A stretch of DNA of 64,000 bases from Prevotellaceae bacterium UBA4361 (GCA_002393575.1 DGSN01000032.1:44783-108782); one strand, 5' to 3'. Numbered from the stretch's first letter, positions 1-60,807 are shown. Made by a program: numbers and translations. Notes: generated from the sequence alone by a model not told the origin.

Positions 1-18
1 TTAAAATCGCTTCTCACA

Positions 19-1353
19 ATGAACCATAGATTGAGAAGGCTATGGGGCCTGTTACTTTTATTTCCTGCCTCTATGTGCTGGGCTCAGCAGGAGAGCAACA
101 ATCAGCTGGACGTGAACTTGCAGATGCTGGGGCACGGCGAAATGCGTTTTGGTGGGTTGGACGACAATGCCAGCGGAAGTGAAAGTGGTGCGACCGACAA
201 GAATCATGCCTACTTCCTGATGGGGCGTACCCGCCTGAGCATCGACTATAAGCGCATGGGCTTGGAAACGAAGGTTGTTGCTCAGCATTCTGGTGTGTGG
301 GGACAGAAGGGACAGGGCAATTTCAACCTCTACGAAGCTTGGGCAAAGTTTAGCTTGAAGAACGGGCTTTTCGGGCAGATTGGCCGTCAGGCTCTGGCAT
401 ACGATGATGAACGTATCATCGGTACGAACGACTGGGCTATGGCTGCGCTCTCTCACGATGTTCTCAGATTAGGCTATGACGGTCCACAGCACAAGGCTCA
501 TGCGATTTTTGCTTTCAACCAAAACGCTGAGAACACCCACGGCGGTACGTACTACAAGGATGGTGCACAGCCCTACAAGACGATGCAAACTATCTGGTAT
601 CATTTCGATGTGCCGAAGTTTCCTCTGGGAGCCTCGCTCTTGTTCATGAACATCGGTATGCAAGGTGGCACGAAGGAAGGCTATGGCGATGATGAGCCGA
701 GGACTATTTACCAGCAACTGTTAGGTACATACATCAAGTTCAGCCCTGGAAGGTTTTCAGCCGAAGCATCCTACTATCATCAGTTAGGCAGAAGCGAGGA
801 CGATCTCAAGATTGACGCATGGATGGCAAGTGTGCGTGGCAGCATGCAAGTGACGAGACAACTCAAGGCTGTGGCGGGCTTCGACTACCTGAGCGGTGAC
901 AAATACTTTGCCGTTCCAGCCAAAGGGCATTTTGGTGTCACGAGGCACGAAGTAATCAAGGGTTTCAATCCCATCTATGGTTCTCACCACAAGTTCTACG
1001 GCATGATGGACTTTTTCTATGTCAGGACCTACCTCAATGGTTTCACTCCTGGATTACAGAACTTGTATGTGGGCGGCGATTATGCCCCTATCGACAAAAT
1101 AAATTTGAAATTGCGATACCACTATCTGGCTATGGCAACCAAACTGGCTGGCATTGACCAGACGTTGGGACATGATGTGGATTTCGAAGCGTCATACCAA
1201 TTCGCTAAAGATGCTCGTTTCTCGTTGGGTTTCTCCTACATGCTTGGTACGGAGAGCATGGAGAAGCTGAAACGCGCATCCAAAGACAACAACCTGAAGT
1301 GGGCATGGTTCTCTCTGCTCATTTCTCCACGTATCTTCACGACCAAATGGTAG
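19..1353 (+). CDS. Outer-membrane beta-barrel protein, alginate-export (AlgE)-like porin family
   Basis: 444-aa ATG-initiated ORF. Signal peptide (LWGLLLLFPASMCWAQQ), amphipathic beta-strand pattern and aromatic C-terminus (FTTKW). The motif GRQALAYDDERIIGTNDWA resembles the GRQ..YGD.RLIG..DW signature I associate with the alginate-export family. Called by recognition, not search. Confidence 0.6.
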   Translation: MNHRLRRLWGLLLLFPASMCWAQQESNNQLDVNLQMLGHGEMRFGGLDDNASGSESGATDKNHAYFLMGRTRLSIDYKRMGLETKVVAQHSGVWGQKGQGNFNLYEAWAKFSLKNGLFGQIGRQALAYDDERIIGTNDWAMAALSHDVLRLGYDGPQHKAHAIFAFNQNAENTHGGTYYKDGAQPYKTMQTIWYHFDVPKFPLGASLLFMNIGMQGGTKEGYGDDEPRTIYQQLLGTYIKFSPGRFSAEASYYHQLGRSEDDLKIDAWMASVRGSMQVTRQLKAVAGFDYLSGDKYFAVPAKGHFGVTRHEVIKGFNPIYGSHHKFYGMMDFFYVRTYLNGFTPGLQNLYVGGDYAPIDKINLKLRYHYLAMATKLAGIDQTLGHDVDFEASYQFAKDARFSLGFSYMLGTESMEKLKRASKDNNLKWAWFSLLISPRIFTTKW

Positions 1354-1409
1354 AGAAACGTGAGTTCGATATAAATAAATATGTTCTTTTGTAGTGCCTC
1401 TACGAGGCA

Positions 1410-1498
1410 GAAATCTAACAAATCTATTCAAAATCTCTCAAAATCTCATTCATATTTGTAAGATTTGAGAAGATTTGTGAGATTTCTCGCGAAGCGAC
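1410..1498. repeat. Imperfect low-complexity hairpin (words AAATCT / AGATTT) followed by a GCGAAGCGAC motif, upstream of the NRPS gene
   Basis: aaatctaacaaatctattcaaaatctctcaaaatctca...agatttgagaagatttgtgagattt. GCGAAGCGAC at 1489-1498 recurs next to the family A hairpins (15218-15230, 48532-48545, 48588-48601). Confidence 0.6.
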
Positions 1499-1567
1499 TC
1501 CTTATACCGAACTGACGTTAGAGAAGGAATTCACCTACATTAATAAGAGCAATAATCACTTTAAACC

Positions 1568-2830
1568 ATGAAACAAATAGTTCCTTTATCAAAAACACAA
1601 TATGGCATCTATGTAGAAAGCGCAAGCCATATAGGAGAAATCTGTTACAATCTGCCTTATTTATATGCTCTTGATAAGAGTCTTGATGCAGAACGCGTAT
1701 GCAGGGCTGTAGAAACTGCAGTGAAAGCCCATCCCACTCTCTTCACTCGCATCATCCTCACGGACGATGGCGAACCTATGCAAACCATCGGTGAAGACAT
1801 CGATTCATGGACGCTCCATGTGGAGGACATTGACAACATCGACACCGTGAAATCCTCTTTGGTAAAGCCGTTCAATCTATACGATGACCTCCTGTTCCAC
1901 ATTCGCCTTTTACGCGATGCCCAACATCTCTATCTATTCATCGACTATCACCACATCATCGTTGACGGCACTTCCATGAAATTGCTTCTCAACGACATGG
2001 ACAAAGCTTATCATGGCGAGGCTCTTGCTCCAGAGCAAATCACGTTGGCAGAAGTGAGTGAGGATGAACAGGCGAAACGTCAGTCCCCAGCATTGGAGGA
2101 AGCCAAGCAATGGTATGCCAAGACTTACGATTGCGGAGATGTTTTCACCCAACTCATTCCCGACCTTGAAGAAGCGACTGTCACAGAAGGTAGCCAGCTC
2201 CACACTATATCCATCAACACTGAGCGAGTTGAGTCTTTCTGCAAGGAAAATGGTGTTTTCAAAAGCACACTCTTCACCATGGCATACGCCTTTCTGCTTG
2301 CAAAATTCAACAATGAGCCAGAATCGCTGTTCACCACCGTTTACAATGGTCGCAACGACAAGCGTTTGAGCAATACGGTTGGCATGTTTGTCAAGACGCT
2401 GCCCGTTTATGCCAAGTTCGACAATGACACATCGGTGCTCGACTACTTGAAAGCAGGGCAGGAGCAAATCAGCGGATGCCGACAGCACGACATCTATTCT
2501 TTCAGCGACCTCATGGAAGACCTCAACTTACAGAGCAATTCCATGTTCGCATGGCATGCCACACTCTTTGCCGACGACCAATTTGGTGACAAGCCAATGG
2601 AGGCTGAACGCATCGGCAACAGCACACTCGATGTTTCACTTTACCTAAAAGCCTTCATCAGAGATGGACATTTTCAGGTGAAGGCAGAATACCGTTCAAA
2701 CGAATATTCCCAGGCACTCATCAGCCAGTATCTGGAAAGTTATGAAGCAGTGATTGAAGGTATGCTTTCCTGCCAATATCTGCGCGACATAGACATAGCT
2801 ACCGCTTCTCAGGTTCAGACACTCGACTCT
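1568..2830 (+). other. NRPS condensation domain C1 (N-terminal, precedes the first A domain)
   Basis: HHIIVDGTS active-site motif at nt 1949-1975. About 420 aa lie before the first A domain. Boundaries approximate. Confidence 0.8.
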
Positions 2831-5800
2831 TTCAATCAGAACGATGTCGATTACGACTCCACTCAGACCATCGTTTCCCTGTTCCTTCAGCAAGCGAAAG
2901 CAACTCCCGACAACATTGCTGTTGTTTTCAAGGAAAAACGCTACACGTACCAGCAAGTGGATGCCATCAGCAACAGCATTGCATCCTGCCTGGCAGGGAA
3001 AGGACTGGGGCAAGGCGATGTCGTTTCGGTACTGATACCACGTTGCGAATGGATGGCAATTGCATCGTTGGGTATTCTGAAAGCAGGATGTGCCTATCAA
3101 CCGCTCGACCCAAGTTATCCGAAGGAGCGACTGAATTTCATGATGCAGGATGCCAATGCACGTTTGCTTCTGAGTCTCGACGAAGCTATTCTGTCCAAGC
3201 AGCAGGCAAAGGAAGGTGAGGGATGGCTCGACGGTCTCGACATTCTGAACGAGAGGAATATCCCTGTCTTAGACCTCAATGAATTCAACCCACAGGACTA
3301 TGACCAGCATTTCGCTTCGGCTACGGTTTCGCCCGACTCACTCTTCATTTTGCTCTACACATCCGGTTCCACAGGTATTCCTAAGGGATGCCAACTCACA
3401 CATGGAAACCTGGTTGCGTTCTGCCACTGGTACCAGAGATTCTACTCCTTGCAGCCAGAACACAACGTGGCAGCATACGCCAGCTACGGTTTCGATGCTT
3501 GCATGATGGACCTGTACCCAGCACTCACTTGCGGTGCTACGGTTCACATCATTCCAGAAGAAATACGTCTCGACCTCATTGCCCTCAACAATTATTTTGA
3601 GCAGAATGCCATCACCCATTCGTTCATGACAACCCAAGTGGGCTATCAGTTTGCTTCGAGCATCGAGAACCACTCGCTCCTCAACCTCTCAACAGGTGGT
3701 GAGAAATTGGCATCTATCGTTCCGCCACAAGGTTACCGCTTCTTCAATGTCTATGGCCCTACGGAGTGTACCATCTTCACAACCACTTTCCAGGTGGAGA
3801 AGAAAATGAAAGAAATTCCAATCGGCAAAGCACTCGACAACATGCGTCTCTACGTGGTTGACACTAAAGGCCATCGACTGCCAGTCGGTGCATCGGGAGA
3901 ACTGTGGGTGTCAGGACCACAAGTGAGTCGCGGCTATCTGAATCGACCAGAGAAGACAGCAGAAGTGTATATCGGCAATCCATTCGTTGACTCCGACGCA
4001 AGCGACAAGAAATATGCACGTGTCTATCGAACGGGCGACATCGTTCGTTTCCTCCCCGATGGAAACATACAGTTTGTCGGTCGTCGCGACGGACAGGTGA
4101 AGATTCGCGGATTCCGCATTGAGCTGAAAGAAGTGGAAGCGGTCATTCGCGATTTCCCTGGCATCAAGGATGCAACCGTGCAAGCCTTCGACGAGGATGG
4201 TGGCGGAAAGTTCATAGCTGCCTACATCGTTAGCGACCAGCAAATCGACATCGATGCTCTCAACAATTTCATTCTCGACCAGAAACCACCTTACATGGTG
4301 CCAGCCGTGACCATGCAGATTGATGCCATTCCGCTGAACCAGAACCAGAAAGTGAACAAGCGTGCTTTGCCAAAGCCTGAGAAAAAGGCAACGGCTGCAG
4401 AAGAAGTATCGAATGTGCCAATGAACGTACTCGAAGAAGAACTCCACAGCATGGTTGCAGCCATCGTCAATAATGAGGACTTCGGAGTAACAACCGTTCT
4501 CGGATATGCAGGTTTCACCTCCATCTCAGCCATCAAACTGGCTGTGCAAGTGAATAAGCGATATGACGTGATGCTCGATGCCAAGTCGCTCGTCAAGACA
4601 GGTACTCTGCAAAGCATTGAAAACGAGATTCTGAAGAAGATGCTTTTCCAGGACACTGACAGCACCGTCAAGAAAGAATCAACACAAGCACAAGATGCAC
4701 CAACCAGCGCACCTCTCTCATACGCACAGACGGGAGTCTATTTCGATTGCTTGAAGAACCCTGCATCCACGCTCTACAACATCCCATATCTGCTCACATT
4801 CCCTTCAGGTACAGACCCGCAGAAGCTGGCTGATGCTGTTGAGAAAGCAGTGAAGAGCCATCCAGAGCTGAGCGTCCACTTCACCACCAAGGGTGACACC
4901 ATCGTTCAGACCACTGAAGGCAGCATTGACATCTCGTTCAGCAAGGGCATAGGAGGCACGATGTCCGAAATGAGCGAAGCACAACTCAGCGAATACAAAA
5001 ACGAATTTGTTCGTCCGTTCAACTTGCAGAAAGCCCCACTCTATCGCTTCGAAATTGTAAGGACAGAACAAAACGTCCATCTGCTCATGGACATTCATCA
5101 TCTCGTTTTCGATGGTGGCTCTGCTGACCTTCTCATTCGTCAGATTTGCTCCCTCCTCGAAGGACAAAACATTGAACAGGAAACTTACACCTATCTCCAC
5201 TTCGTCACCGACCAGCAGGCAGCTGAGGATACGGATGAATTCCGTGCAGCAAAAGATTTCTTTGCCGAAAAACTGCAAACCTGTGAAGGTGCTAGCGAAA
5301 TACCTGCCGACCTCCACTCCGATGAATTAGCCGAGCATGAAGGAGTCATCGGCGAGGCTGTCTGTCCAACCGATTTCGACCGCATCAACGCCTTCTGCCG
5401 TGAAAAGGAAATCACTCCAGCCCATCTGTTCCTCGCTGCAACAGCTTACGTTGTTTCCCGCTACACCAACAACCGCGAGGTCTATCTCTGCACTGTCAGC
5501 AGCGGACGTAGCAACTTGAAGATTGCTGACACCGTGGGCATGTTTGTCAACACACTTGCCCTTGGACTGAACATCAGCGATGTCAGTGTGTCCGAATTCC
5601 TGAAGCAAACGAGTGAAACTTTCGACCAAACACTTCGCCACGAGGATTATCCATTCGTGCGCATCGCATCCGACTACGGTTTCCGTCCAGCCATTGCCTA
5701 TGCTTACCAAGTGGGTGTCCTTTCTCAATACACTGTCGGTTCGAAGCCTGTTGGTCAGGAACTGCTGGAACTCAACGTTCCGAAATTCAAAATCAACATC

Positions 5801-8800
5801 AAGATAGAGTCGCGAGGTGTCGTTGTGCAGTACGACGACTCACTCTATTCTGCTCGTCTCGGCACCGCACTTGCAGAGAGCATTGCTGCCGTAGCAGAAC
5901 GAATCACGCAGAATCCACAAGGCAAGATTCGCCACCTCTCCATCATCAGCAACAATCAGGAAGAAGAGCTCAGCCACCTGCGACAGACAGCCACAGGAGA
6001 TGCTCCATTCCAGTTCTTCCACGAATGCATCGCCCACTTCGCACAGACCCAACCTGAGCACGACGCATTAGTGGCTATCGATGCTTCTTATAACTATCAG
6101 CAGATGGACGATGCCACCAACCGTATAGCAATGGCTCTCCGCAAGCGTGGCGTTCAGGAGCGCGACCGAGTGGCACTGCTCCTCCCGCGTACCAGCCGAC
6201 TCATTCTGTCCCTCTTCGGTGTACTGAAAGCAGGTGCCGCTTACATTCCATGCGACCCAGAATATCCTGCCGACCGTGTGAAACTCATCCTTGAGGACAG
6301 CGAAGCACGCTACATCATCACAACCGCCGACCGCATCGACTCCGTTCCAGCAGGAAAGGGCATCGACGTGGAACAGTTGTTGGAAGAACAGACCGATGCC
6401 CCATTTGCTGCACCATCCATCACCCCTGACGACCTCGCCTACCTCATCTACACCAGCGGTTCCACAGGCAGACCAAAGGGAGTTATGCTCCGTCACGAAG
6501 GCATTTGCAACTACCTTTACGGCCATCCAGCCAACGTGTTCGCTCATGGTGTGCTCACTGATGCCCGTCGCATTCTCAGTGTCACCACCATTTCCTTCGA
6601 TGCAGCACTGCAAGACATCGGCATGGCATACTTCAACGGCAAGACACTCGTACTCGCCACCGAAGAACAAGCCAACAACCCTCTCGACCTGGCACAACTC
6701 ATCAACGAGCAACACATCAACATGGTGTCGGGCACACCATCGCGCTGGCAAACATGGCTCACCAGCGACGACTTCTGCCAAGCCATCAGCCACGTTGACA
6801 TCTGCCGTGCAGGTGGAGAGAAATTCTCCGACCAGCTTCTCAGCCAGATGCGCAGTGTTACTCATGCACGCATCTTCAACTGTTATGGTCCTACAGAAAT
6901 CACCGTTGCATCCAACAACAAGGAACTCACACATGCCAACATCGTGACAGTGGGCCGACCACAACTGAATGTCAAGGAATTCATTGTCGATGCCGACGGC
7001 AACGAACTGCCTGTTGGTGTGGTAGGTGAACTCTATATCGGTGGACGAGGCGTAGCTCGAGGCTACAACAACCTCGACGACATGACTCGCGAACGCTTCA
7101 TCACCTACTGCCCTGTGCGCACAGACTGCTCTACGGCAATCCGCATCTACAAGTCGGGCGACTATGCCAAGTGGCTTCCTGATGGCGACGTAGTCATTCT
7201 CGGACGAACCGACCACCAAATCAAACTGCGTGGACTCCGCATCGAATTGGGCGAAATCGAAAACGTCATGCTCAAAGTCGATGGCATCAAGAAAGTCGTT
7301 ATACTGATTCGCAAACTCAACGGCAAGGAGCACCTCTGCGCATACTACACCGCCGACCACGAAATCGCACCAGAAAACCTGAAAGCCGAAATCTCAAAGA
7401 GCCTCACACAGTACATGGTGCCAACAGCATACCTGCAACTTCCAGAAATGCCAATGACACCAAACGGCAAGACAGACGTGAAGGCACTCCCTGAACCACA
7501 GCTCGCCAGCACATCAGCATACGTTGCCCCTGCCAACGACACGGAACGCAGCTTCTGCGACATCTTCGCTTCCATCCTGCAAATGGAGCGAGTGGGAGCA
7601 ACCGACAACTTCTTCGAATTGGGAGGCACCTCCCTCGTTGTCACACGCGTCATCATCGAAGCAGACAAGGCTGGAATGCACGTAGCTTACGGCGATGTCT
7701 TCGCCAACCCAACCCCTCGCCAGCTTGCACGTTTGCTAACAGGAGATGCTGACAGCGAACAGACCGACGAAGTGGCAGCTTTCGACTACTCAGCCATCGA
7801 TGCTATCCTTCAGCACAATACACTCGACAACTTCCGCCAAGGACAACGCCAAAATTTGGGCAACGTACTTCTCACGGGAGCCACAGGCTATCTCGGCATC
7901 CACATCCTCCACCGACTCATCCAGTCTGATGCACAGATTATCTATTGCCTCGTGCGTGGCAAGAGCCAAGAGAAAGCAGAGAGCCGCTTGCGCACACTTC
8001 TCTACTACTACTTCGCCAATGCCCACAAGGACCTCTTCGGCACACGACTCCACGTCATTATCGGCGACGTAACAGCTGACATCAGCCAACTCACTTCCCA
8101 CCTCGCACCAACAACCATCAACACCGTCTTCAACTGCGCAGCCATTGTCAAGCACTTCAGCGAAGGCACAGAGATAGAAGACGTGAACATCGGAGGTGCA
8201 CAGCGATGCGTAGATTTCTGCATACAGACAGGCGCACAACTCGTTCATGTATCTACAGCCAGCACCCGAGGACTTTGGGCAGGCGACATCAAGAGCGACA
8301 CCTTCACCGAGCAACGACTCTACATGGGACAATACCTCGGCAACAAGTACATCTACTCCAAGTTCATGGCAGAGCGACTCATCCTCGATGCAGTGGCACA
8401 TCACGGACTCAACGCCAAAATCATGCGCGTCGGCAACCTCGCCGCACGTTCCACCGACGGAGAGTTCCAGGCAAACTTCTCCACCAACTCCTTCATGGGG
8501 CGCATCAGAGTTTACAACATGCTCGGTTGCTGTCCACATGGCATGAGAAACAAGCGCGTCGAGTTCTCCCCAATCAACGAAGTCGCCGATGCCATCGTCC
8601 TACTCGCATCCGCACCGCAAAAGTGTACCGTCTTCCATCCTTACAATATCCACACCCAGTTCCTTGGCGACGTACTCACCGGACTCACAAGCGTGGGCGA
8701 AAAACTCCGCACAGCCGACGGTTCTACAACCGTAGGCATTCGCTTCGTAGAACAAGAGGAATTTGCAGAAGCTATGGAAGCAGCCAAGTCCGACCCACAG

Positions 8801-8992
8801 AAAGCACGTCAGATGGCATCACTACTCGCCTACCAAGACATGGCACACGGTCAGAAGACCACCGATGTCAACCGCGACAACGACTACACCACCCAGGTGC
8901 TCTATCGTCTCGGCTTCGCCTGGTCGCCAACATCGTGGGACTATGTCGAGCGTATGCTCACAGCCATCGGTGGCTTCGGCTTCTTTGAGTAA
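1568..8992 (+). CDS. Bimodular non-ribosomal peptide synthetase, domain order C-A-T-C-A-T-R (terminal thioester reductase)
   Basis: Uninterrupted 2474-aa ORF. C-domain motifs: HHIIVDG (nt 1949-1969) and HHLVFDG (nt 5096-5116). A-domain cores: LLYTSGSTGIPKG/NVYGPTE/YRTGD/GRRDGQVKIRGFRIEL and LIYTSGSTGRPKG/NCYGPTE/YKSGD/GRTDHQIKLRGLRIEL. Carrier serines in GFTSIS (nt 4520-4522) and LGGTSL (nt 7631-7633). C-terminal LLTGATGYLG Rossmann motif plus YIYSKFMAE (Y-x-x-x-K). Confidence 0.95.
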   Translation: MKQIVPLSKTQYGIYVESASHIGEICYNLPYLYALDKSLDAERVCRAVETAVKAHPTLFTRIILTDDGEPMQTIGEDIDSWTLHVEDIDNIDTVKSSLVKPFNLYDDLLFHIRLLRDAQHLYLFIDYHHIIVDGTSMKLLLNDMDKAYHGEALAPEQITLAEVSEDEQAKRQSPALEEAKQWYAKTYDCGDVFTQLIPDLEEATVTEGSQLHTISINTERVESFCKENGVFKSTLFTMAYAFLLAKFNNEPESLFTTVYNGRNDKRLSNTVGMFVKTLPVYAKFDNDTSVLDYLKAGQEQISGCRQHDIYSFSDLMEDLNLQSNSMFAWHATLFADDQFGDKPMEAERIGNSTLDVSLYLKAFIRDGHFQVKAEYRSNEYSQALISQYLESYEAVIEGMLSCQYLRDIDIATASQVQTLDSFNQNDVDYDSTQTIVSLFLQQAKATPDNIAVVFKEKRYTYQQVDAISNSIASCLAGKGLGQGDVVSVLIPRCEWMAIASLGILKAGCAYQPLDPSYPKERLNFMMQDANARLLLSLDEAILSKQQAKEGEGWLDGLDILNERNIPVLDLNEFNPQDYDQHFASATVSPDSLFILLYTSGSTGIPKGCQLTHGNLVAFCHWYQRFYSLQPEHNVAAYASYGFDACMMDLYPALTCGATVHIIPEEIRLDLIALNNYFEQNAITHSFMTTQVGYQFASSIENHSLLNLSTGGEKLASIVPPQGYRFFNVYGPTECTIFTTTFQVEKKMKEIPIGKALDNMRLYVVDTKGHRLPVGASGELWVSGPQVSRGYLNRPEKTAEVYIGNPFVDSDASDKKYARVYRTGDIVRFLPDGNIQFVGRRDGQVKIRGFRIELKEVEAVIRDFPGIKDATVQAFDEDGGGKFIAAYIVSDQQIDIDALNNFILDQKPPYMVPAVTMQIDAIPLNQNQKVNKRALPKPEKKATAAEEVSNVPMNVLEEELHSMVAAIVNNEDFGVTTVLGYAGFTSISAIKLAVQVNKRYDVMLDAKSLVKTGTLQSIENEILKKMLFQDTDSTVKKESTQAQDAPTSAPLSYAQTGVYFDCLKNPASTLYNIPYLLTFPSGTDPQKLADAVEKAVKSHPELSVHFTTKGDTIVQTTEGSIDISFSKGIGGTMSEMSEAQLSEYKNEFVRPFNLQKAPLYRFEIVRTEQNVHLLMDIHHLVFDGGSADLLIRQICSLLEGQNIEQETYTYLHFVTDQQAAEDTDEFRAAKDFFAEKLQTCEGASEIPADLHSDELAEHEGVIGEAVCPTDFDRINAFCREKEITPAHLFLAATAYVVSRYTNNREVYLCTVSSGRSNLKIADTVGMFVNTLALGLNISDVSVSEFLKQTSETFDQTLRHEDYPFVRIASDYGFRPAIAYAYQVGVLSQYTVGSKPVGQELLELNVPKFKINIKIESRGVVVQYDDSLYSARLGTALAESIAAVAERITQNPQGKIRHLSIISNNQEEELSHLRQTATGDAPFQFFHECIAHFAQTQPEHDALVAIDASYNYQQMDDATNRIAMALRKRGVQERDRVALLLPRTSRLILSLFGVLKAGAAYIPCDPEYPADRVKLILEDSEARYIITTADRIDSVPAGKGIDVEQLLEEQTDAPFAAPSITPDDLAYLIYTSGSTGRPKGVMLRHEGICNYLYGHPANVFAHGVLTDARRILSVTTISFDAALQDIGMAYFNGKTLVLATEEQANNPLDLAQLINEQHINMVSGTPSRWQTWLTSDDFCQAISHVDICRAGGEKFSDQLLSQMRSVTHARIFNCYGPTEITVASNNKELTHANIVTVGRPQLNVKEFIVDADGNELPVGVVGELYIGGRGVARGYNNLDDMTRERFITYCPVRTDCSTAIRIYKSGDYAKWLPDGDVVILGRTDHQIKLRGLRIELGEIENVMLKVDGIKKVVILIRKLNGKEHLCAYYTADHEIAPENLKAEISKSLTQYMVPTAYLQLPEMPMTPNGKTDVKALPEPQLASTSAYVAPANDTERSFCDIFASILQMERVGATDNFFELGGTSLVVTRVIIEADKAGMHVAYGDVFANPTPRQLARLLTGDADSEQTDEVAAFDYSAIDAILQHNTLDNFRQGQRQNLGNVLLTGATGYLGIHILHRLIQSDAQIIYCLVRGKSQEKAESRLRTLLYYYFANAHKDLFGTRLHVIIGDVTADISQLTSHLAPTTINTVFNCAAIVKHFSEGTEIEDVNIGGAQRCVDFCIQTGAQLVHVSTASTRGLWAGDIKSDTFTEQRLYMGQYLGNKYIYSKFMAERLILDAVAHHGLNAKIMRVGNLAARSTDGEFQANFSTNSFMGRIRVYNMLGCCPHGMRNKRVEFSPINEVADAIVLLASAPQKCTVFHPYNIHTQFLGDVLTGLTSVGEKLRTADGSTTVGIRFVEQEEFAEAMEAAKSDPQKARQMASLLAYQDMAHGQKTTDVNRDNDYTTQVLYRLGFAWSPTSWDYVERMLTAIGGFGFFE
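2867..4381 (+). other. NRPS adenylation domain A1
   Basis: Core motifs A3 LLYTSGSTGIPKG, A4 FDACMMD, A5 NVYGPTE, A7 YRTGD, A8 GRRDGQVKIRGFRIEL, A10 NQKVNKRALP. Boundaries approximate. Confidence 0.9.
4415..4640 (+). other. NRPS thiolation (PCP) domain T1
   Basis: LGYAGFTSISAIKL, with the presumed phosphopantetheine-attachment Ser at nt 4520-4522. This is a variant of the usual GG(D/H)S(L/I) motif. Confidence 0.75.
4709..5950 (+). other. NRPS condensation domain C2
   Basis: HHLVFDGGS at nt 5096-5122, preceded by a polar linker (QDTDSTVKKESTQAQDAPTS). Boundaries approximate. Confidence 0.85.
6010..7495 (+). other. NRPS adenylation domain A2
   Basis: Core motifs LIYTSGSTGRPKG, FDAALQD, NCYGPTE, YKSGD, GRTDHQIKLRGLRIELGEIE, PNGKTDVKALP. 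Boundaries approximate. Confidence 0.9.
7536..7739 (+). other. NRPS thiolation (PCP) domain T2
   Basis: DNFFELGGTSLVVTRV, with Ser at nt 7631-7633. Confidence 0.85.
7868..8989 (+). other. NRPS terminal thioester reductase (R/TD) domain, SDR fold
   Basis: NAD(P)H-binding LLTGATGYLGIHIL and catalytic YIYSKFMAE. About 370 aa following T2, with no TE domain. Confidence 0.85.
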
Positions 8993-9040
8993 ACGTTAAA
9001 AAGTAACTTGGTACGATTATAAACCACTCATCTGTGTTTT

Positions 9041-9187
9041 TCAACCACGAATTACTCGAATAAACGAATTTTTGATTTTAATGTTATCAAATTTCTCTAA
9101 TTTTAAAAATGCCTGCATTTTTATTCGTGAAATTTGATTATATACTACTCAAAATTAATTCGTTTAATTCGTGAAATTCGTGGTTGA
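9041..9187. repeat. Long imperfect inverted repeat (AATTCGTG/AATTCGTT words) between the NRPS and MATE genes
   Basis: Left arm tcaaccacgaattactcgaataaacgaatttttga (9041-9075). Right arm tcaaaattaattcgtttaattcgtgaaattcgtggttga (9149-9187). The outer 13 bp are perfectly complementary. A third word copy lies at 9123-9139. Confidence 0.75.
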
Positions 9188-9247
9188 TAATAATCCCAAC
9201 TTATTCTTTATTCTTCAGTCTTCATTCTTCACTCTCACTTCCCCATC

Positions 9248-10600
9248 ATGAACTCCGATCTGAATAAACAGTTCTACAACTACCTCTGGGCGTACATCCT
9301 TGTTGCCCTGTCAGGATGCCTCGGCAACGTAGTCGATGGCATCATCGTCGGCAACCTCATCAGCGAAGACGGCGTCAGCGCCATCAACCTCTCCAAGCCC
9401 ATCAACCAGTTCATATTCACACTCCACCTCCTCATCAATGCAGGAGCAGGAATGCTCGTGGCATACGCATTAGGAAAGAAGAACATAGCCGAAGCACAAC
9501 GCTACTTCGTCCGAGCCCTCACCCTCAGCACCAGCATCGGCATACTGCTCGCCATTGGCGGAGGTATCATCTTCCTCACACAAACAGCCAACCTCCTCTG
9601 CAGCAACGATCAGATACGTCCGCTCGCAACCGACTACATGCAGATACTCCTGCTTGGCAACCCTGCCTTCATCCTCCTGTGGGGACTCTCTACGATGGTT
9701 GGAGCCGATGGCAGTCCCAAACTCGTCTCCTTAGCCGTCATCATCGACAACGCAGCCAACCTATGCCTCGACATCGTCTTCATCCAGTGTATGGGTTGGG
9801 CCATAGCTGGTTCCTCCGCAGCAACCGTTGTGGGCCACCTCATCGGCATCGCCATCCTACTCAACCATTGGAGAAAACCAGGCGTGGCACAACTACGACT
9901 CAGCATCAAGCCCATTCCATCATCCGAACAGAACCAGCAACAAGACACACTCCTCACCTCCTGGCGACAGATAATCTCCCAAGGCGCACCCCTCGCCATT
10001 GCCTCCATCAGCCTCACCCTCCTCATGCTCTCTGCCAACACCATTGTGCTCGACACCCTGGGACGAACAGGCATCTTCGCCTTCGCAGTCTGCATGAACC
10101 TCCTGCAAATCTACAACCTCTTCGTTTCAGGCACCTGCCAAACACTCCAGTCCCTCGGAGCCATACAAGTAGGGAAAGGAAATGCCGACGGATTGCGACA
10201 AGTGATACGGAAAGCCTTCCGCTTCATCACCGTATCCATGACCATCACCTGCATCCTCGTCTGGATTTTTTCCACAGCCATCGTCCAACTCTTTGGAGCC
10301 AACGAACCAGCTTTCATCGCAGAGGGAAACCATGCACTGCGCATCTTTGCCCTCAGCTTCATCCTCTTCTGCTACATCTACGTGTTGATGATCGTGTATA
10401 AGCTCCACAAGCAAGACAACATGGCATTGTTCATCTCCTTTGCCCTCTCCCTCACCGTCATTCCAGTCCTTTGGGTCATGTCACGATGGCAACCCGCCTA
10501 CCTCTGGTACAGCTACCTCATTGCCTACATCATCGAAGGCATCGCCATCTTCATGATCCACAAAATGACCATTACTTCAAAAGTGAAAAAAGGGGCTTAG
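9248..10600 (+). CDS. MATE-family efflux transporter (MOP superfamily)
   Basis: 450 aa, about 12 hydrophobic helices in two halves. The N-terminal region (LGNVVDGIIVGNLISEDGVSAINLSKPI...AYALGKKNIAEAQRYF) fits the MATE pattern. Called by recognition. Confidence 0.65.
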   Translation: MNSDLNKQFYNYLWAYILVALSGCLGNVVDGIIVGNLISEDGVSAINLSKPINQFIFTLHLLINAGAGMLVAYALGKKNIAEAQRYFVRALTLSTSIGILLAIGGGIIFLTQTANLLCSNDQIRPLATDYMQILLLGNPAFILLWGLSTMVGADGSPKLVSLAVIIDNAANLCLDIVFIQCMGWAIAGSSAATVVGHLIGIAILLNHWRKPGVAQLRLSIKPIPSSEQNQQQDTLLTSWRQIISQGAPLAIASISLTLLMLSANTIVLDTLGRTGIFAFAVCMNLLQIYNLFVSGTCQTLQSLGAIQVGKGNADGLRQVIRKAFRFITVSMTITCILVWIFSTAIVQLFGANEPAFIAEGNHALRIFALSFILFCYIYVLMIVYKLHKQDNMALFISFALSLTVIPVLWVMSRWQPAYLWYSYLIAYIIEGIAIFMIHKMTITSKVKKGA

Positions 10601-10636
10601 TATTTAGAGTTGGTAAGTTAAAAGTTAATAGTGAAA

Positions 10637-10742
10637 AAGACCCTCCCCAACTATAGACCCCTCCAACTCCCCTGTGAGGGGAAAGAAATAACCATCCGGG
10701 TGACTACCCCCTCCCTCACAGGGAGGGCTGGGGAGGGTCTTT
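10637..10742. mobile_element. MITE/REP-like element bounded by AGACCCTCCCC ... GGGGAGGGTCT inverted termini (family B), copy 1
   Basis: Terminal inverted repeats at 10637-10648 and 10730-10742. Internal hairpins cccc-tgtga-gggg (about 10669-10681) and ccctccc-tcaca-gggaggg (10709-10727). The 3' 45 nt are near-identical to 60742-60786. Confidence 0.6.
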
Positions 10743-10753
10743 CCCACTTCCCC

Positions 10754-11323
10754 ATGTACCTCACCACCCGCATCACACAGTTCGACCTCGCCGCTGCACT
10801 CGCCACAGTCAGTGAACAACGGCGAGAGTACGCAATGCGCTATCATCAAGAGCACGACCGTCGGCTATCCGTTGCCGCATACCAACTGCTGCAACAAGCC
10901 CTCCGTGAGGAGTACGACATCAACGAAGCCCCCTGGTTCGACTTCGGCAAGCACGGAAAACCCATCCTGCGCGACCACCCCGACATTCATTTCAGCCTAA
11001 GCCATTGCCGCTATGCAGCAGCCTGTGCCGTTGACAACCAACCCGTAGGCATCGACGTGGAAAGCCTCGACAACTACGACCCATCACTTCTCCCTGCCAC
11101 CATGAACGAAGCAGAACAAGCCGAAATACACCGTTCGCCCAACCCGTCCATCACCTTTCTCCGCCTATGGACCATGAAAGAGAGTTACCTGAAAACCACT
11201 GGCGAGGGCATAGCCAATGACATGCGAACAGTACTCACCAACCCATCATTCCATCCTCAACGCTACCAATTCCACACCACTATCTACCCCCAATTTGTTT
11301 GCACGCTATGCAAACAAAACTAA
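10754..11323 (+). CDS. 4'-phosphopantetheinyl transferase, Sfp type
   Basis: Motifs GKHGKPIL, FSLSHC, VGIDVE, WTMKESYLK. I place the start at ATG 10754, because the GTG-initiated track ORF (10631) would translate straight through the family B repeat. Confidence 0.85.
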   Translation: MYLTTRITQFDLAAALATVSEQRREYAMRYHQEHDRRLSVAAYQLLQQALREEYDINEAPWFDFGKHGKPILRDHPDIHFSLSHCRYAAACAVDNQPVGIDVESLDNYDPSLLPATMNEAEQAEIHRSPNPSITFLRLWTMKESYLKTTGEGIANDMRTVLTNPSFHPQRYQFHTTIYPQFVCTLCKQN

Positions 11324-11508: not shown

Positions 11509-14500
11509 TTACTTGATGAACACCTTCTTACCGTTGATAATGTTCATACCCTTCTGTGGTGCGTTGAGACGCTGACCTTGGATGTTGTAGATGGTTTGCT
11601 GACCAGCGTTGCCACTAAGGTTAGCAATACCTACAGTTTCATCGTTGCCGAGATAGAAGAGCTGGAAGTCATCGTAGATGAGCCAGTCGTTGCCGATGGC
11701 TGCCGTCTTGCGGAGACCGATAGTTGCGTTGCCACCTGCCTTCACGTAGATGCGTACTGAGTTGTTGTAAGCCTCTGGGCTCTGGAGCAGACGGTTGTAG
11801 AATCCAGCCATAGAGGAAGGATAGTAATATACGTTGTCGCCATCCTGTACGCGGGTATCGAATGGATAAGCTGGTGATTCGAGGTTGATGTTCTGGAGGC
11901 AGTCGATAAGGTCGTCTTCGTTGAGCACAGTCTCTTCGCCTTCGAGGATGCAGATGGTGCCATCCCAGTCGGTTACGTAACCTGCATTCACAGCTTCTTC
12001 ACTGTCCTTTGCGTTCCACCACTTGTCGAAGCTTGGAGTGGTCCACTTGCCGTCGCAAACAGACTTCACGTAGTTGGAGTTTTCTGTACCTCCGCTGCTT
12101 GCATAGATGATGGCGTTGTGGTTTTCCCAATTGTCGATGTCGGCATTTGCTGCCACCCACCAGTTGTAGTAAGGACCGCTTGTTGCATTGCCTACATCGC
12201 CAGCGTCGCGATAGCAAGCACGTGCGCGGAACTCGTAGAGTCCTTCAGGAAGGTTCTTGATGGTCTGGTGAATATCGAATGGGGAAGCATTCCAGATTTC
12301 AGCGTTCTGACGTCCGTAAGTGTTGACGGTAGGAGTAGCGCCTTCGGAAGTCCAGCCTACGGTTGGTCCTTCTGCCAAAGCTGGGTTGACGAGAAGGCTT
12401 GTCACTTCAACAGGATTGTCGAGCGTAGCCTTGTCAGCATTGAGTTCTGCAAAGATAGCCTTGTTGATGACTGCGCTGAGAGCGGACTCGTAGCGGTCGA
12501 GTTCTTCGATGGTAGCATAGTGGGTAGCGAGGTCAGCTGCCTGGGTAGCGATGGTAGTGTTTGCCTCGTCTGTGTTGTAAGAACGTGCCTTGTCAACAGT
12601 TCTCATGTAAGACTCGTAAGCTGCATAAACCTTGTTGGCTTCTTCAGCATCCTTGTATGTGTCGTTTTCGCCATTACCCAAGTTGAGTGAGAACTGGAGT
12701 GCTGGTTCGATGATCGCATATTCTTCAGACTTATTGGAGTAGTTCTCCTGCATGGTGGCATACTTGCCAGGGAGGTCGAATGCAGTGGTGATGCGAGCAG
12801 CTTCTGAAGCGTACTTGTCTGCTTCCTTGACGATTTCGATAGCTTGGCTGTAAGCCTCTGGGCTGGTGATTGGCATGGAGATGGTGGCGAGGATGTCGTC
12901 AACGGCCTTGCGGTCGCCTGCCCATGTGAGGGAGCCTGCATACTTATTGTTGAGTTCTGCGATGCGGTCGTTCACAAGCTTAGAATAGTCTGGTGATTCG
13001 CCGTAGTAGCGGAATGTGACACCAGTGTTGAGTGCCATTGAGTTGTGGTGATAACCGAGCGTAACGGTGCCTCCTGTTACCTGAAGGAAGTCGGTAGTGA
13101 CATCTGTCCAGTCGCCACGACCATAGTAGCTCCAGTAGCCCTTGGATGTGGTGTTGTTGGCTTGAACCATCTTGTCGCCACACTGCAGGAATACATACTG
13201 GTTGAGGTCGGCTTCATTGCCTTCGTTAGCAAATGCGAACATACGGCCTTCGATAGTGTAGAATCCGTCAGGGAGATTGGTAACGACCTGCTTCACCCAA
13301 ATGTCACCAGTGTTAGGACCTGCGCACCAACCAGTGTAGATGCCGCAATAGCCTTTCAGCCACTGCACGTTGTTCTGCATACCGCCAATCCAACCGTTGA
13401 AGTTGTTCTGGAAAATCCATCGATTCTCGGCTTCCTTGCTGGTGGTGTAATCGACTTTGTCTGCCAATGGAACAAGCCACTGGTTCTCGTCGTCATTCCA
13501 CTGTTGTGCAATTTCCACATTGCATTCGTCGTTTGGATGATGTGCGCCCCAGGTATCTTCAATCTCCTGTGGGAACTTGTACTCGCCATCGCGGAAGGTT
13601 GGTGTATATTCCTGGTTCACGAACCAAGGGCAGGAGATGACGTTTGTCACGTCGATAAAGCCATCAGCGTTCTTGTCCTGAGAGAGTACGTAGTTGACAC
13701 GTGCCTGTGCGAGGGCATTGGCTGCGTCGAGGTAACCCTGAACGGAGAAGATGGTCTGTTCACCTTCGCCGTCACCCAGTGCTGACTTAGCAGTGGCGAT
13801 AGCAGCTTCAAGCTGTGCCTTTTCTGGATAGTCAGTCACTTGAAGGAGTCCTTCGCAAACGGTTACGAGGTAGTCCATGTTCTGAACCTTCACACGTGCC
13901 ACTTGGAAGTCTTCGATATAGCTGTTCACCAAGTCGAGAGCTGCATACACTTCATCGAGTGTGGAATTGTTTGGGTCAACGTCGATTTCTCCAACGAGCT
14001 CCTCAAGAAGTGCTGCCAAAGAAGGATAGCTGTCGCCTATCACGTCAGCAAGATTTTCAGCAGCATCGACAGCTGTGTTGAACTTAGTAAGTGCTACTAC
14101 CTTCTTTGCATCGTCGTCGTAGTCACCTTCCCAAGTGATGCGGAAATTGTTCCACCATACCTGGTCTTGAGCTTGCTCTACTTGCTTGGAGATACCAATG
14201 CGGATGGTCATTTCCTCTGGCACAGCAAAGAGGACTTCGTTTTCTCCGAACTTGCCATTTTCGAAGAAAGCGGTAGCACCGTCGTGGCAAGAAGGAGCAT
14301 AGTAGGTGTTGCCATCCTTAGATGTCTGCTTCTGGTCGTTCTGCCAACCATCATGCTGATAATAGGATTCTGTAGATTTTGACCCCCAGAGGGACATAAT
14401 CTTGGTTTCATAGCGCTCATCGCCAACCTGCACATAGAGGTAGGCGTTCTGAGTAGGTGTGCCTGCATCCCAGTTGCGGAAAGAGACGTTTGCATCTCCT

Positions 14501-14841
14501 TCACGATAGAGTGCCTGAACGGTGAGGTTGTAAAGACCTGCAGGAATGGTGAATTCCTGATAAACGTCCCACTGAGGAATGTTGTAAGTTCCCCAAGTGA
14601 CAGCAGGGCGTTCATAATCAGAGTTAGCGAACTCCCAACGAGTATCAGAGCCAGAGGTACCAGCCTGATAGTCGAAGCCCTTCCAAGCAGGATTGTCCAT
14701 ATCCTCTTGGTCACCGGTTGTGGCTTTCCAGTTCAGCAGATTGGTTACGTCCTGACCCTCTTTCCAACCAGAGGTGTCCTGAGCGTATGCACCCAATGCC
14801 AAACCAGCCAAAAGCGAAAGCGTAAAGACTCTTTTTTTCAT
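11509..14841 (-). CDS. Large secreted protein of unknown function with a T9SS (Por) C-terminal sorting domain
   Basis: Signal peptide MKKRVFTLSLLAGLALGAYAQD. C-terminal ...IYNIQGQRLNAPQKGMNIINGKKVFIK is typical of T9SS CTDs. Three related modules share LP(A/D/E)GxYxh motifs, separated by helical Ala/Glu/Leu-rich linkers. Confidence 0.8.
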   Translation of the reverse strand: MKKRVFTLSLLAGLALGAYAQDTSGWKEGQDVTNLLNWKATTGDQEDMDNPAWKGFDYQAGTSGSDTRWEFANSDYERPAVTWGTYNIPQWDVYQEFTIPAGLYNLTVQALYREGDANVSFRNWDAGTPTQNAYLYVQVGDERYETKIMSLWGSKSTESYYQHDGWQNDQKQTSKDGNTYYAPSCHDGATAFFENGKFGENEVLFAVPEEMTIRIGISKQVEQAQDQVWWNNFRITWEGDYDDDAKKVVALTKFNTAVDAAENLADVIGDSYPSLAALLEELVGEIDVDPNNSTLDEVYAALDLVNSYIEDFQVARVKVQNMDYLVTVCEGLLQVTDYPEKAQLEAAIATAKSALGDGEGEQTIFSVQGYLDAANALAQARVNYVLSQDKNADGFIDVTNVISCPWFVNQEYTPTFRDGEYKFPQEIEDTWGAHHPNDECNVEIAQQWNDDENQWLVPLADKVDYTTSKEAENRWIFQNNFNGWIGGMQNNVQWLKGYCGIYTGWCAGPNTGDIWVKQVVTNLPDGFYTIEGRMFAFANEGNEADLNQYVFLQCGDKMVQANNTTSKGYWSYYGRGDWTDVTTDFLQVTGGTVTLGYHHNSMALNTGVTFRYYGESPDYSKLVNDRIAELNNKYAGSLTWAGDRKAVDDILATISMPITSPEAYSQAIEIVKEADKYASEAARITTAFDLPGKYATMQENYSNKSEEYAIIEPALQFSLNLGNGENDTYKDAEEANKVYAAYESYMRTVDKARSYNTDEANTTIATQAADLATHYATIEELDRYESALSAVINKAIFAELNADKATLDNPVEVTSLLVNPALAEGPTVGWTSEGATPTVNTYGRQNAEIWNASPFDIHQTIKNLPEGLYEFRARACYRDAGDVGNATSGPYYNWWVAANADIDNWENHNAIIYASSGGTENSNYVKSVCDGKWTTPSFDKWWNAKDSEEAVNAGYVTDWDGTICILEGEETVLNEDDLIDCLQNINLESPAYPFDTRVQDGDNVYYYPSSMAGFYNRLLQSPEAYNNSVRIYVKAGGNATIGLRKTAAIGNDWLIYDDFQLFYLGNDETVGIANLSGNAGQQTIYNIQGQRLNAPQKGMNIINGKKVFIK

Positions 14842-60637: not shown

Positions 60638-60807
60638 AGAAGACCCTCCCCATCCCTCCCAGTGAGGGAGGGAGTGAAAAGTGATAAATTCGCAAACAAA
60701 CCGGACGGTATTTTTAACTTTCAACTTTTCATTTTCAAGCTGGGTGACTACTCCCTCCCTCACAGGGAGGGCTGGGGTGGGTCTTCTGTTGGGGAGGGTC
60801 TTTTTTT
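60638..60807. mobile_element. MITE/REP-like element bounded by AGACCCTCCCC ... GGGGAGGGTCT (family B), copy 2. Probable bidirectional terminator between metH and glnN
   Basis: Termini at 60638-60651 and 60791-60807, with a T7 run after the right terminus. Internal hairpins ccctccc-agtga-gggaggg (60654-60672) and ccctccc-tcaca-gggaggg (about 60753-60771). The glnN stop codon (60806-60808) abuts the element. Confidence 0.6.

Follow-up and report, generated by a model that had tools for sequence, protein, structure and literature searches.

The first 11,323 nucleotides (nt) of a 64,000-nt stretch of DNA from Prevotellaceae bacterium UBA4361 (GCA_002393575.1, DGSN01000032.1:44783-108782; the window hereafter, with positions counted from its first letter) encode an outer-membrane β-barrel, a non-ribosomal peptide synthetase (NRPS), a MATE-type pump and an Sfp-type 4'-phosphopantetheinyl transferase (PPTase). 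This raises the question of what such a locus makes, how the product would leave a cell with two membranes, and whether the porin belongs with the NRPS at all. Here we report that the locus is the larger part of a six-gene cassette, sensor-STAS-porin-NRPS-MATE-PPTase, which is conserved among Bacteroidales of the ruminant gut. We consider it probable, although well short of certain, that the cassette is a regulated make-and-export unit, in which a reductively released N-acyl dipeptide is exported by the MATE pump and the porin under the control of the sensor and the STAS protein.

A six-gene cassette cut by the window edge

Four open reading frames (ORFs), all on the plus strand, occupy positions 19-1353 (444 amino acids, aa), 1568-8992 (2474 aa), 9248-10600 (450 aa) and 10631-11323 (230 aa, from a GTG start). 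This agrees with an earlier annotation of the window made from sequence alone (the original prediction), which had listed four co-directional genes over nt 19-11323, and the functions it gave them were borne out by Pfam (Alginate_exp for the porin; Condensation, AMP-binding and PP-binding for the NRPS; MatE for the pump; ACPS for the PPTase). It had also described the locus as self-contained, and in this respect it has to be revised. An exact look-up of the porin retrieved L033, a 177.6-kb ENA metagenome scaffold of sheep-rumen type, which is 100% identical to the window from its nt 9983 onward (window coordinate = L033 coordinate - 9982). Since L033 carries a sensor gene and a STAS gene directly upstream on the same strand, both cut off by the window edge, the unit comprises six genes:

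L033 6887-9220, outside the window, same strand as the cassette: sensor gene (Pfam on the contig's called genes)
L033 9429-9731, outside the window, same strand as the cassette: STAS gene (Pfam on the contig's called genes)
1-18, plus strand: final 18 nt of the spacer between STAS and porin; the cassette runs on upstream, outside the window
19-1353, plus strand: outer-membrane β-barrel of the Alginate_exp (AlgE-like) fold, PF13372, with a signal peptide ending ...CWA/QQ
1568-8992, plus strand: dimodular NRPS, C-A-T-C-A-T-R (C, condensation; A, adenylation; T, carrier; R, reductase), from Pfam, NCBIfam and the location of motifs
9248-10600, plus strand: MATE family efflux transporter (Pfam MatE, 98.6 bits, in two stretches)
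10754-11323, plus strand: Sfp-type PPTase (Pfam ACPS, 47.7 bits; the mechanical ORF runs from the GTG at nt 10631)

The sensor is a protein of 777 aa, in which two transmembrane (TM) segments enclose a 270-aa dCache domain (Pfam MCP-like_PDC_1/dCache); behind them come a SpoIIE/PP2C phosphatase (167 bits) and a kinase of the RsbW type (HATPase_c_2, 96 bits). The STAS protein has 100 aa (Pfam STAS, 63.5 bits) and a phospho-site motif, ...YIASSGLR..., so that the sensor and this single-domain protein, with its phosphorylatable serine, between them supply the components of a partner-switching module: phosphatase, kinase and STAS. Solved structures were tried as a guide to the dCache ligand and rejected, as the best match reached only 43 bits, to the uncharacterised sensor 3LIC. 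On L033, tandem 21-nt repeats (8342-8468) put a low-complexity stretch of KEQGTTD (twice) and LHASPST (three times) into the PP2C domain, and this is the worst-aligned part of the sensor among orthologues, at 26% identity.

The porin scores 27.5 bits against PF13372, marginally above the cut-off of 25.2. Its AlphaFold model, built with 42 homologues, is an all-β barrel of about 20 strands with a predicted local distance difference test (pLDDT) score of only 73.6 and a predicted template-modelling (pTM) score of 0.72. When the model was compared to the PDB with Foldseek, the top 16 matches were all AlgE, whose barrel has 18 strands (TM-score 0.57-0.62, best E = 3e-14); Campylobacter MOMP and the OccK/OpdO channels came next. 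NCBI labels members of the family as "alginate export family protein"; however, neither the window nor L033 nor any of 45 related loci contains alginate operon genes (alg8/44/K/X and others). Many Arg and His residues are invariant across the family.

The pump has two MatE repeats, about 12 TM segments and about 450 aa, as expected of the MATE family, and scores 110 bits against the NCBIfam model TIGR00797, below its cut-off of 147. In the PPTase, the motifs GKHGKP, FSLSHC, VGIDVE and WTMKESYLK named in the original prediction can all be read in the translation. Homologues (189-212 aa) align only from about aa 42, and thus the true start is probably the ATG at nt 10754, giving 189 aa; the additional 41 N-terminal codons of the mechanical ORF cross a GC-rich repeat and are a spurious extension created by it.

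Conservation of the cassette

The original prediction held NRPS loci to be uncommon in Prevotella-type genomes. This is not borne out by the 2155 homologues of the window NRPS found at E<=1e-50, nor by the cataloguing of NRPS clusters in rumen Bacteroidota (PMC8241843). More than 110 clusters at 90% identity are full-length relatives at 75-99% identity, and the few named ones are Prevotella sp. or Bacteroidaceae.

The neighbourhood was sampled from two sides. A scan seeded with the porin, taking one genome per GTDB species, gave 32 loci, and since this sample is biased towards porin-containing loci, seven further loci were collected with the NRPS as seed, a sample unbiased as to the porin. All 32 porin-seeded loci are from ruminant-gut metagenome-assembled genomes of Prevotella, Prevotellaceae, Muribaculaceae and other Bacteroidales. 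Sensor, STAS, porin and NRPS stand in line in 20 of these species loci, with the MATE gene preceding the NRPS in one of them; where enough downstream DNA is available, a MATE gene comes after the NRPS in 13 of 16 loci, and a PPTase gene in 8 of 15. Four of the seven NRPS-seeded loci have the full cassette in line. Taking both samples together, all 27 NRPS loci with upstream DNA also carry the sensor and STAS genes, making a regulator, which the original prediction had not seen, the most constant partner of the NRPS. The porin is present in 26 of 27 (six of seven in the unbiased sample), at least as often as MATE or PPTase.

The pairing of porin and NRPS is not due to chance, as it is kept across porins that are only 46-80% identical. 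Gaps between the cassette genes in other species measure 1-110 nt, and because the flanking genes differ in every species (dnaA/gyrA, a restriction-modification system, glycosidases and others), it is the cassette and not a chromosomal site that is conserved. These data bear directly on a much simpler explanation, namely that porin, sensor and STAS are generic housekeeping genes which merely neighbour an NRPS-MATE-PPTase island. Such a view could draw on the marginal Pfam score of the porin and on the size of its family, whose 2099 homologues include members in other contexts (beside an ABC transporter, DUF2271 and others), but it does not account for an adjacency retained in all but one NRPS locus across deep divergence and between wholly different flanks, with gaps down to 5-16 nt, and we regard it as very improbable.

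Longer relatives of the NRPS, also terminated by a reductase, occur in the same bacterial group. These are three- and four-module enzymes of 3493 and 4121 aa (L037 1-18482; L036 3549-15914), each with an MFS transporter, and the L037 locus also has a second NRPS, of the dimodular kind, with one longer NRPS 4.7 kb downstream of it. The four-module form opens with a loading A domain for a non-amino-acid unit and has a length near that of Mru_0351 (4187 aa) of Methanobrevibacter ruminantium. We considered the longer enzymes P0010 and P0020 as bearers of the cassette and rejected them, as they have MFS transporters beside them and neither sensor nor porin; the cassette is accordingly specific to the dimodular form.

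The NRPS and its predicted product

The domains of the NRPS are arranged as follows:

1571-2770, plus strand: N-terminal condensation domain C1 (Pfam Condensation, aa 2-401; HHIIVDG at aa 128)
2885-4351, approximate boundaries, plus strand: adenylation domain A1, code DAMFSGVIFK (GrsA/1AMU numbering)
4430-4633, approximate boundaries, plus strand: carrier domain T1 (PP-binding; Ser985 in AGFTS)
4706-6007, approximate boundaries, plus strand: condensation domain C2 (Pfam; HHLVFDG at aa 1177)
6035-7492, plus strand: adenylation domain A2, code DAQSRGCVAK (GrsA/1AMU numbering)
7553-7738, plus strand: carrier domain T2 (PP-binding; Ser2022 in LGGTS)
7859-8989, plus strand: terminal thioester reductase of the short-chain dehydrogenase/reductase (SDR) type (NAD_binding_4, 128 bits; TGATGYLG at aa 2103, YIYSK at aa 2261)

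Pfam thus finds Condensation, AMP-binding and PP-binding twice each, and NAD_binding_4/Epimerase at the C-terminus. The enzyme had been called bimodular, which is correct as to its two modules but passes over the C-terminal thioester reductase (aa ~2098-2474). All catalytic motifs are intact: HHxxxDG in both C domains, the serines of both carriers, and TGxxGxxG and YxxxK in the reductase. Two A-T modules followed by an SDR-type thioester reductase place the enzyme in the class of reductively released (N-acyl) dipeptide aldehydes, and the N-terminal C domain with its intact HHxxxDG places it in the N-acylating subset, the acylation itself being predicted. Terminal R domains release aldehydes, for example the dipeptide aldehydes of gut Clostridia (PMC8210680, summarising Guo 2017), and ruminopeptin is referred to as an aldehyde-type R-domain product in PMC12327764. 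The best PDB matches of the R domain are the PCP-R (peptidyl carrier protein-reductase) structure of Mru_0351 (6VTJ, PMC8024701; 221 bits) and the aldehyde-forming R domain of AusA (4F6C, 125 bits). Release by the terminal R domain of AusA yields an aldehyde.

Specificity codes were read against GrsA numbering, with a reference fragment that proved 100% identical to 1AMU residues 185-528. The A1 code, DAMFSGVIFK, varies slightly among homologues, is nearly invariant across species, and resembles codes which we take to be aliphatic (Leu/Ile/Val-type). The A2 code, DAQSRGCVAK, is unchanged in 110 of 111 dimodular homologues. Apart from Gln239 and Arg299 its pocket is made up of small residues, which suggests a polar or acidic side chain for the second amino acid. 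Both codes keep Asp235, and therefore specify α-amino acids.

This last feature also speaks against a siderophore-like or myxochelin-like product. NCBIfam does find the NRPS to be similar in part to MxcG (699 bits) and EntF (620 bits), but these values fall far short of the required 2300 and 2400, and the conserved cassette contains no dihydroxybenzoate (DHB) genes, no hydroxamate genes and no TonB-dependent receptor. We give this possibility hardly any credence.

With regard to C1, its HHIIVDG motif is kept in 110 of 110 dimodular homologues, so the domain is under selection. It is orthologous (60% identity over 2060 aa) to the C domain of P0010 that follows an A-T loading module, and the loading-module A code in the four-module relatives, IPQISGVGMK, is without Asp235; the loading module therefore does not activate an α-amino acid. 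Since the motif is under selection and the ortholog is fed by a non-amino-acid loading module, C1 most likely N-acylates the first residue from a donor supplied in trans, and a leading C domain goes with N-acylated peptides elsewhere (PMC2812497). As judged from these domains, the product is most likely a small N-acylated dipeptide aldehyde that the cassette would make, export and regulate.

Proposed mechanism

We propose that the cassette would operate as follows. The PPTase would prime both carrier domains of the NRPS, after which C1 would load an acyl group from a donor in trans, acyl-coenzyme A (acyl-CoA) or an acyl carrier protein (acyl-ACP). A1 would activate an aliphatic, hydrophobic amino acid and A2 the second, family-invariant residue, and the reductase would use NAD(P)H to free the N-acyl dipeptide as a C-terminal aldehyde, which may be over-reduced to the alcohol. 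The molecule released may be protease-inhibitor-like or signal-like. The MATE pump would move it over the inner membrane and the AlgE-fold barrel of 18 strands would serve as a passive outer-membrane channel for it. Production would be controlled by the partner-switching module encoded upstream, in which the periplasmic dCache domain, the PP2C phosphatase and the RsbW-type kinase would set the phosphorylation of the STAS protein. The genes and domains, the catalytic motifs, the fold of the porin and the conserved gene order are observed in this scheme, whereas the acyl donor, the two amino acids, the choice between aldehyde and alcohol, the direction of passage through the porin and the output of the STAS switch are inferred.

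Evidence that weighs against the proposal

A number of observations weigh against this scheme. The first group concerns the porin, whose association with the sensor is closer than that with the exporter. Sensor, STAS and porin persist with no NRPS within 10 kb in four species (L005, L014, L015 and L021); in two NRPS-seeded loci (L042 and L045) the porin gene is divergent but directly beside the sensor; another NRPS-seeded locus, on two contigs, reads sensor-STAS-NRPS-MATE and has no porin; and MATE is missing from 3 of the 16 porin-seeded loci. The original prediction had supposed that a porin at this locus in relatives lacking the NRPS would mean that the two are not functionally linked. Such relatives do exist in these four species, but a neighbour-joining tree scatters their porins inside the NRPS-linked clade, and because of this nesting, repeated secondary loss of the NRPS with retention of the sensing half would fit better than an absence of linkage.

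The same observations favour a different role for the porin, as it follows the sensor in cassettes that have been rearranged or have no NRPS. Here the porin would mainly serve the sensor by admitting the dCache ligand, possibly the cassette product released by kin or neighbours, so that the whole would be a produce-and-sense, autoinducer-like circuit, and species with sensor, STAS and porin alone would be listeners. In keeping with this, the dCache domain retains 20 invariant residues, including an aromatic/Asp set, at a mean identity of 46%, and as species differ very little in the A1 code and not at all in the A2 code, the product would be shared among them. An uptake role is also implied by a sister clade of porins (46-53% identity; L022, L023, L024 and L032), which always adjoins an ABC importer made of a fused SBP_bac_3-permease and an ATPase. 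The sister-clade porin itself seems, from this arrangement, to be a dedicated outer-membrane uptake channel for that importer. However, porins are passive and serve both directions, so that sensing and export are not mutually exclusive; moreover, one complete cassette is without the porin, and the analogous neighbourhood of M. ruminantium has a phosphatase/STAS module and no porin. We judge a mainly sensory porin to be unlikely, while ranking it as the most serious of the alternatives considered here.

A second group concerns the chemistry. In PDB similarity, which is suggestive here, C1 is nearer the elongation type (LCL; TycC6, 93 bits) than a starter condensation domain (SrfA Cs, 33 bits), and to our knowledge no specificity code corresponds to DAQSRGCVAK, which makes the identity of residue 2 a guess. 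The sequence of an R domain does not tell two-electron from four-electron reduction (PMC8024701), and an alcohol may therefore take the place of the aldehyde. The LCL-like character of C1 might mean that the domain is catalytically idle, in which case the NRPS would release a free dipeptide aldehyde, and spontaneous ring closure would turn this into a dihydropyrazinone or pyrazinone, as happens with AusA and with many clusters of gut Clostridia. AusA is indeed the best NCBIfam match, and the cassette contains no acyl-activating gene. Starter C domains, however, commonly take acyl-CoA or acyl-ACP from primary metabolism, so a dedicated gene is not needed, and an idle C1 is difficult to reconcile with HHxxxDG being kept in every dimodular homologue or with an orthologous C domain placed after a loading module in the four-module relatives. 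On balance we think an idle C1 improbable.

The last point concerns the switch: in L033 and related loci, the conserved cassette encodes no sigma factor or other switch target, although one could be encoded elsewhere in the genome. With these points set against it, export of an N-acyl dipeptide under sensor-STAS control is still the reading that we prefer.

Relation to known systems

No NCBIfam model was reached by the NRPS or the PPTase. The AusA equivalog NF047350 gave 1153 bits against a cut-off of 2500, with partial coverage, and the AusB equivalog NF047349 gave 96 against 225; MxcG, EntF and SolG were likewise far below their cut-offs. The view that the locus has no match among characterised clusters is thus upheld, and a literature search found no paper characterising the sensor-linked Bacteroidales NRPS cassette. 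The reductase-terminated dimodular kind of NRPS is already known, whereas its sensor- and porin-coupled form in Bacteroidales is new.

By architecture, the closest comparison is to two systems of gut anaerobes, the dipeptide-aldehyde NRPSs of gut Clostridia, a family reportedly described by Guo et al. in Cell in 2017, and the rup/ruminopeptin cluster of Ruminococcus bromii, said to be the work of Schneider and Balskus. Both likewise combine two modules with a terminal reductase, and both are accompanied, as is the Bacteroidales cassette, by a PPTase and a transporter. Those Clostridia enzymes that begin with a C domain produce dipeptide aldehydes of the N-acyl type (PMC8210680). Unlike these systems, the Bacteroidales host is diderm and the cassette adds the AlgE-like barrel, the fused dCache-PP2C-kinase sensor and the STAS protein.

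A second comparison is to M. ruminantium M1, also from the rumen, where the C-A-T-C-A-T NRPS mru0068 has a MatE pump, an anti-sigma-factor antagonist and a pair of serine phosphatases at its sides (Leahy 2010, PMC2812497), and where a separate PPTase cluster includes a phosphatase, an antagonist and a kinase (PMC2812497). Compared by description, the cassette has the same association as mru0066-0071, a C-A-T-C-A-T NRPS beside a phosphatase, an antagonist and MatE, and the best solved match of its R domain comes from the mru0351/0352 locus (Mru_0351). The phosphatase and the kinase are separate genes in M. ruminantium but are fused to the dCache sensor in the cassette. M. ruminantium is an archaeon with no outer membrane and its neighbourhood has no porin, whereas the hosts of the cassette are double-membraned, and for this reason the porin looks like an addition specific to double-membraned hosts.

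AusA and AusB, which make aureusimine in Staphylococcus aureus, are the best NCBIfam matches and likewise pair a dimodular NRPS, with a terminal aldehyde-forming R domain, with an Sfp-type PPTase, but AusA is A-T-C-A-T-R, without an N-terminal C domain, and neither porin nor MATE nor sensor is encoded at the aus locus. AlgE, the alginate export porin of Pseudomonas aeruginosa, shares the PF13372 fold at an identity of only 11-13%; unlike AlgE, the porin family of the cassette is linked to the sensor and NRPS or, in the sister clade, to the ABC importer. Finally, RsbU/RsbV/RsbW modules likewise consist of a PP2C (SpoIIE) phosphatase, a HATPase_c_2 kinase and a single-domain STAS protein with a Ser-Ser-Gly motif, but the cassette joins both enzymes in a single membrane protein, preceded by a dCache domain, and has no sigma factor. 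A periplasmic sensor domain is also found in RsbU of Chlamydia.

Spacers and flanking genes

Every spacer of the cassette in the source genome is enlarged by repeats, of which the following lie in the window:

1357-1518, no strand: right arm of a 160-185-nt inverted repeat bracketing the porin gene (left arm at L033 9771-9953, third copy at L033 5444-5604)
8993-9247, no strand: NRPS-MATE spacer with an AT-rich imperfect palindrome of about 150 nt (CGAAT/ATTCG motifs)
10698-10740, no strand: GC-rich palindromic repeat (CCCTCCCT...AGGGAGGG) in the MATE-PPTase spacer, from a repeat search

The arms around the porin share an 88-nt core that is 97% complementary, with internal AGATTTG/CAAATCT motifs, and a transcript containing both arms could fold into a long duplex enclosing the porin ORF. 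The third copy, 94% identical, lies 4 kb upstream between a cupin and an AlkZ-like gene, and the repeat was not found in the loci of 30 other species; it is a species-specific dispersed repeat. We considered an invertible switch for the porin and rejected it, given this absence, the third copy and the lack of any inverted-state junction, the pattern for which was found in no metagenome contig against one contig in the normal state (a weak test). A copy related to the AT-rich palindrome (about 80% identical) is found in another species (L001 98-297). The GC-rich element (CCCTCCCTnnnAGGGAGGG core) is dispersed in spacers, occurring also between sensor and STAS (L033 9229-9399) and at about 60640-60805 in the window, where it sits between two convergent genes, and it looks like a repeat of the REP (repetitive extragenic palindromic) or MITE (miniature inverted-repeat transposable element) type. 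A scan of the spacers with Rfam for riboswitches and known RNAs returned only chance microRNA-like hairpins, and a scan for sigma-70 promoters and terminators, which is uninformative for Bacteroidota, did no better than on shuffled sequence.

Upstream of the sensor, the genes change strand and are not conserved in the loci of other species. Those on the minus strand (cupin, AlkZ-like, nitroreductase, aldo-keto reductase, esterase, peptidase S9) were considered as tailoring enzymes and rejected, as they are not kept beside the cassette elsewhere. Downstream, a gene for a secreted protein of 1110 aa (11509-14841, minus strand) is convergent with the cassette and is likewise not beside it elsewhere. 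The original prediction had named this neighbour a type IX secretion system (T9SS) cargo protein; its signal peptide and, by eye, its T9SS-like C-terminal tail (...YNIQGQRLNAPQKGMNIINGKKVFIK, resembling a sorting domain) are in accord with this, whereas no Pfam or NCBIfam family supports it except DUF5013, which is below threshold. The F-ATPase operon predicted as the next neighbour was found there. Elsewhere in the window, a 915-aa plus-strand ORF (57866-60613) lies in its most GC-rich and most strongly GC-skewed part (GC 0.53-0.56).

Significance

Prevotella-type bacteria dominate the rumen. NRPS clusters of rumen Bacteroidota have been counted, some of those in Prevotella are differentially expressed, and a statistical link to feed efficiency has been reported (PMC8241843), yet none of the catalogued Prevotella-type clusters has a product assigned to it. 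As the family is widespread and well-delimited and its predicted dipeptide core is nearly invariant, one characterisation would annotate hundreds of genomes. The strict tie to a periplasm-sensing partner-switching module offers a handle on switching the pathway on, which is the usual obstacle for the cluster products of anaerobes, and the usual tie to a dedicated outer-membrane channel makes the cassette a suitable case in which to study the passage of small NRPS products through the outer membrane of Bacteroidales. Should the product prove to be a peptide aldehyde, it could alter the activity of rumen proteases, whether from microbes or from the host. A more far-reaching idea, which we hold to be improbable and put forward as speculation, is that the cassette takes part in small-molecule communication in the rumen, in which a conserved N-acyl dipeptide aldehyde would pass through the porin in both directions, be read by the dCache domain and be eavesdropped upon by species that have only sensor, STAS and porin, in a language shared with the phosphatase/STAS/NRPS loci of Methanobrevibacter.

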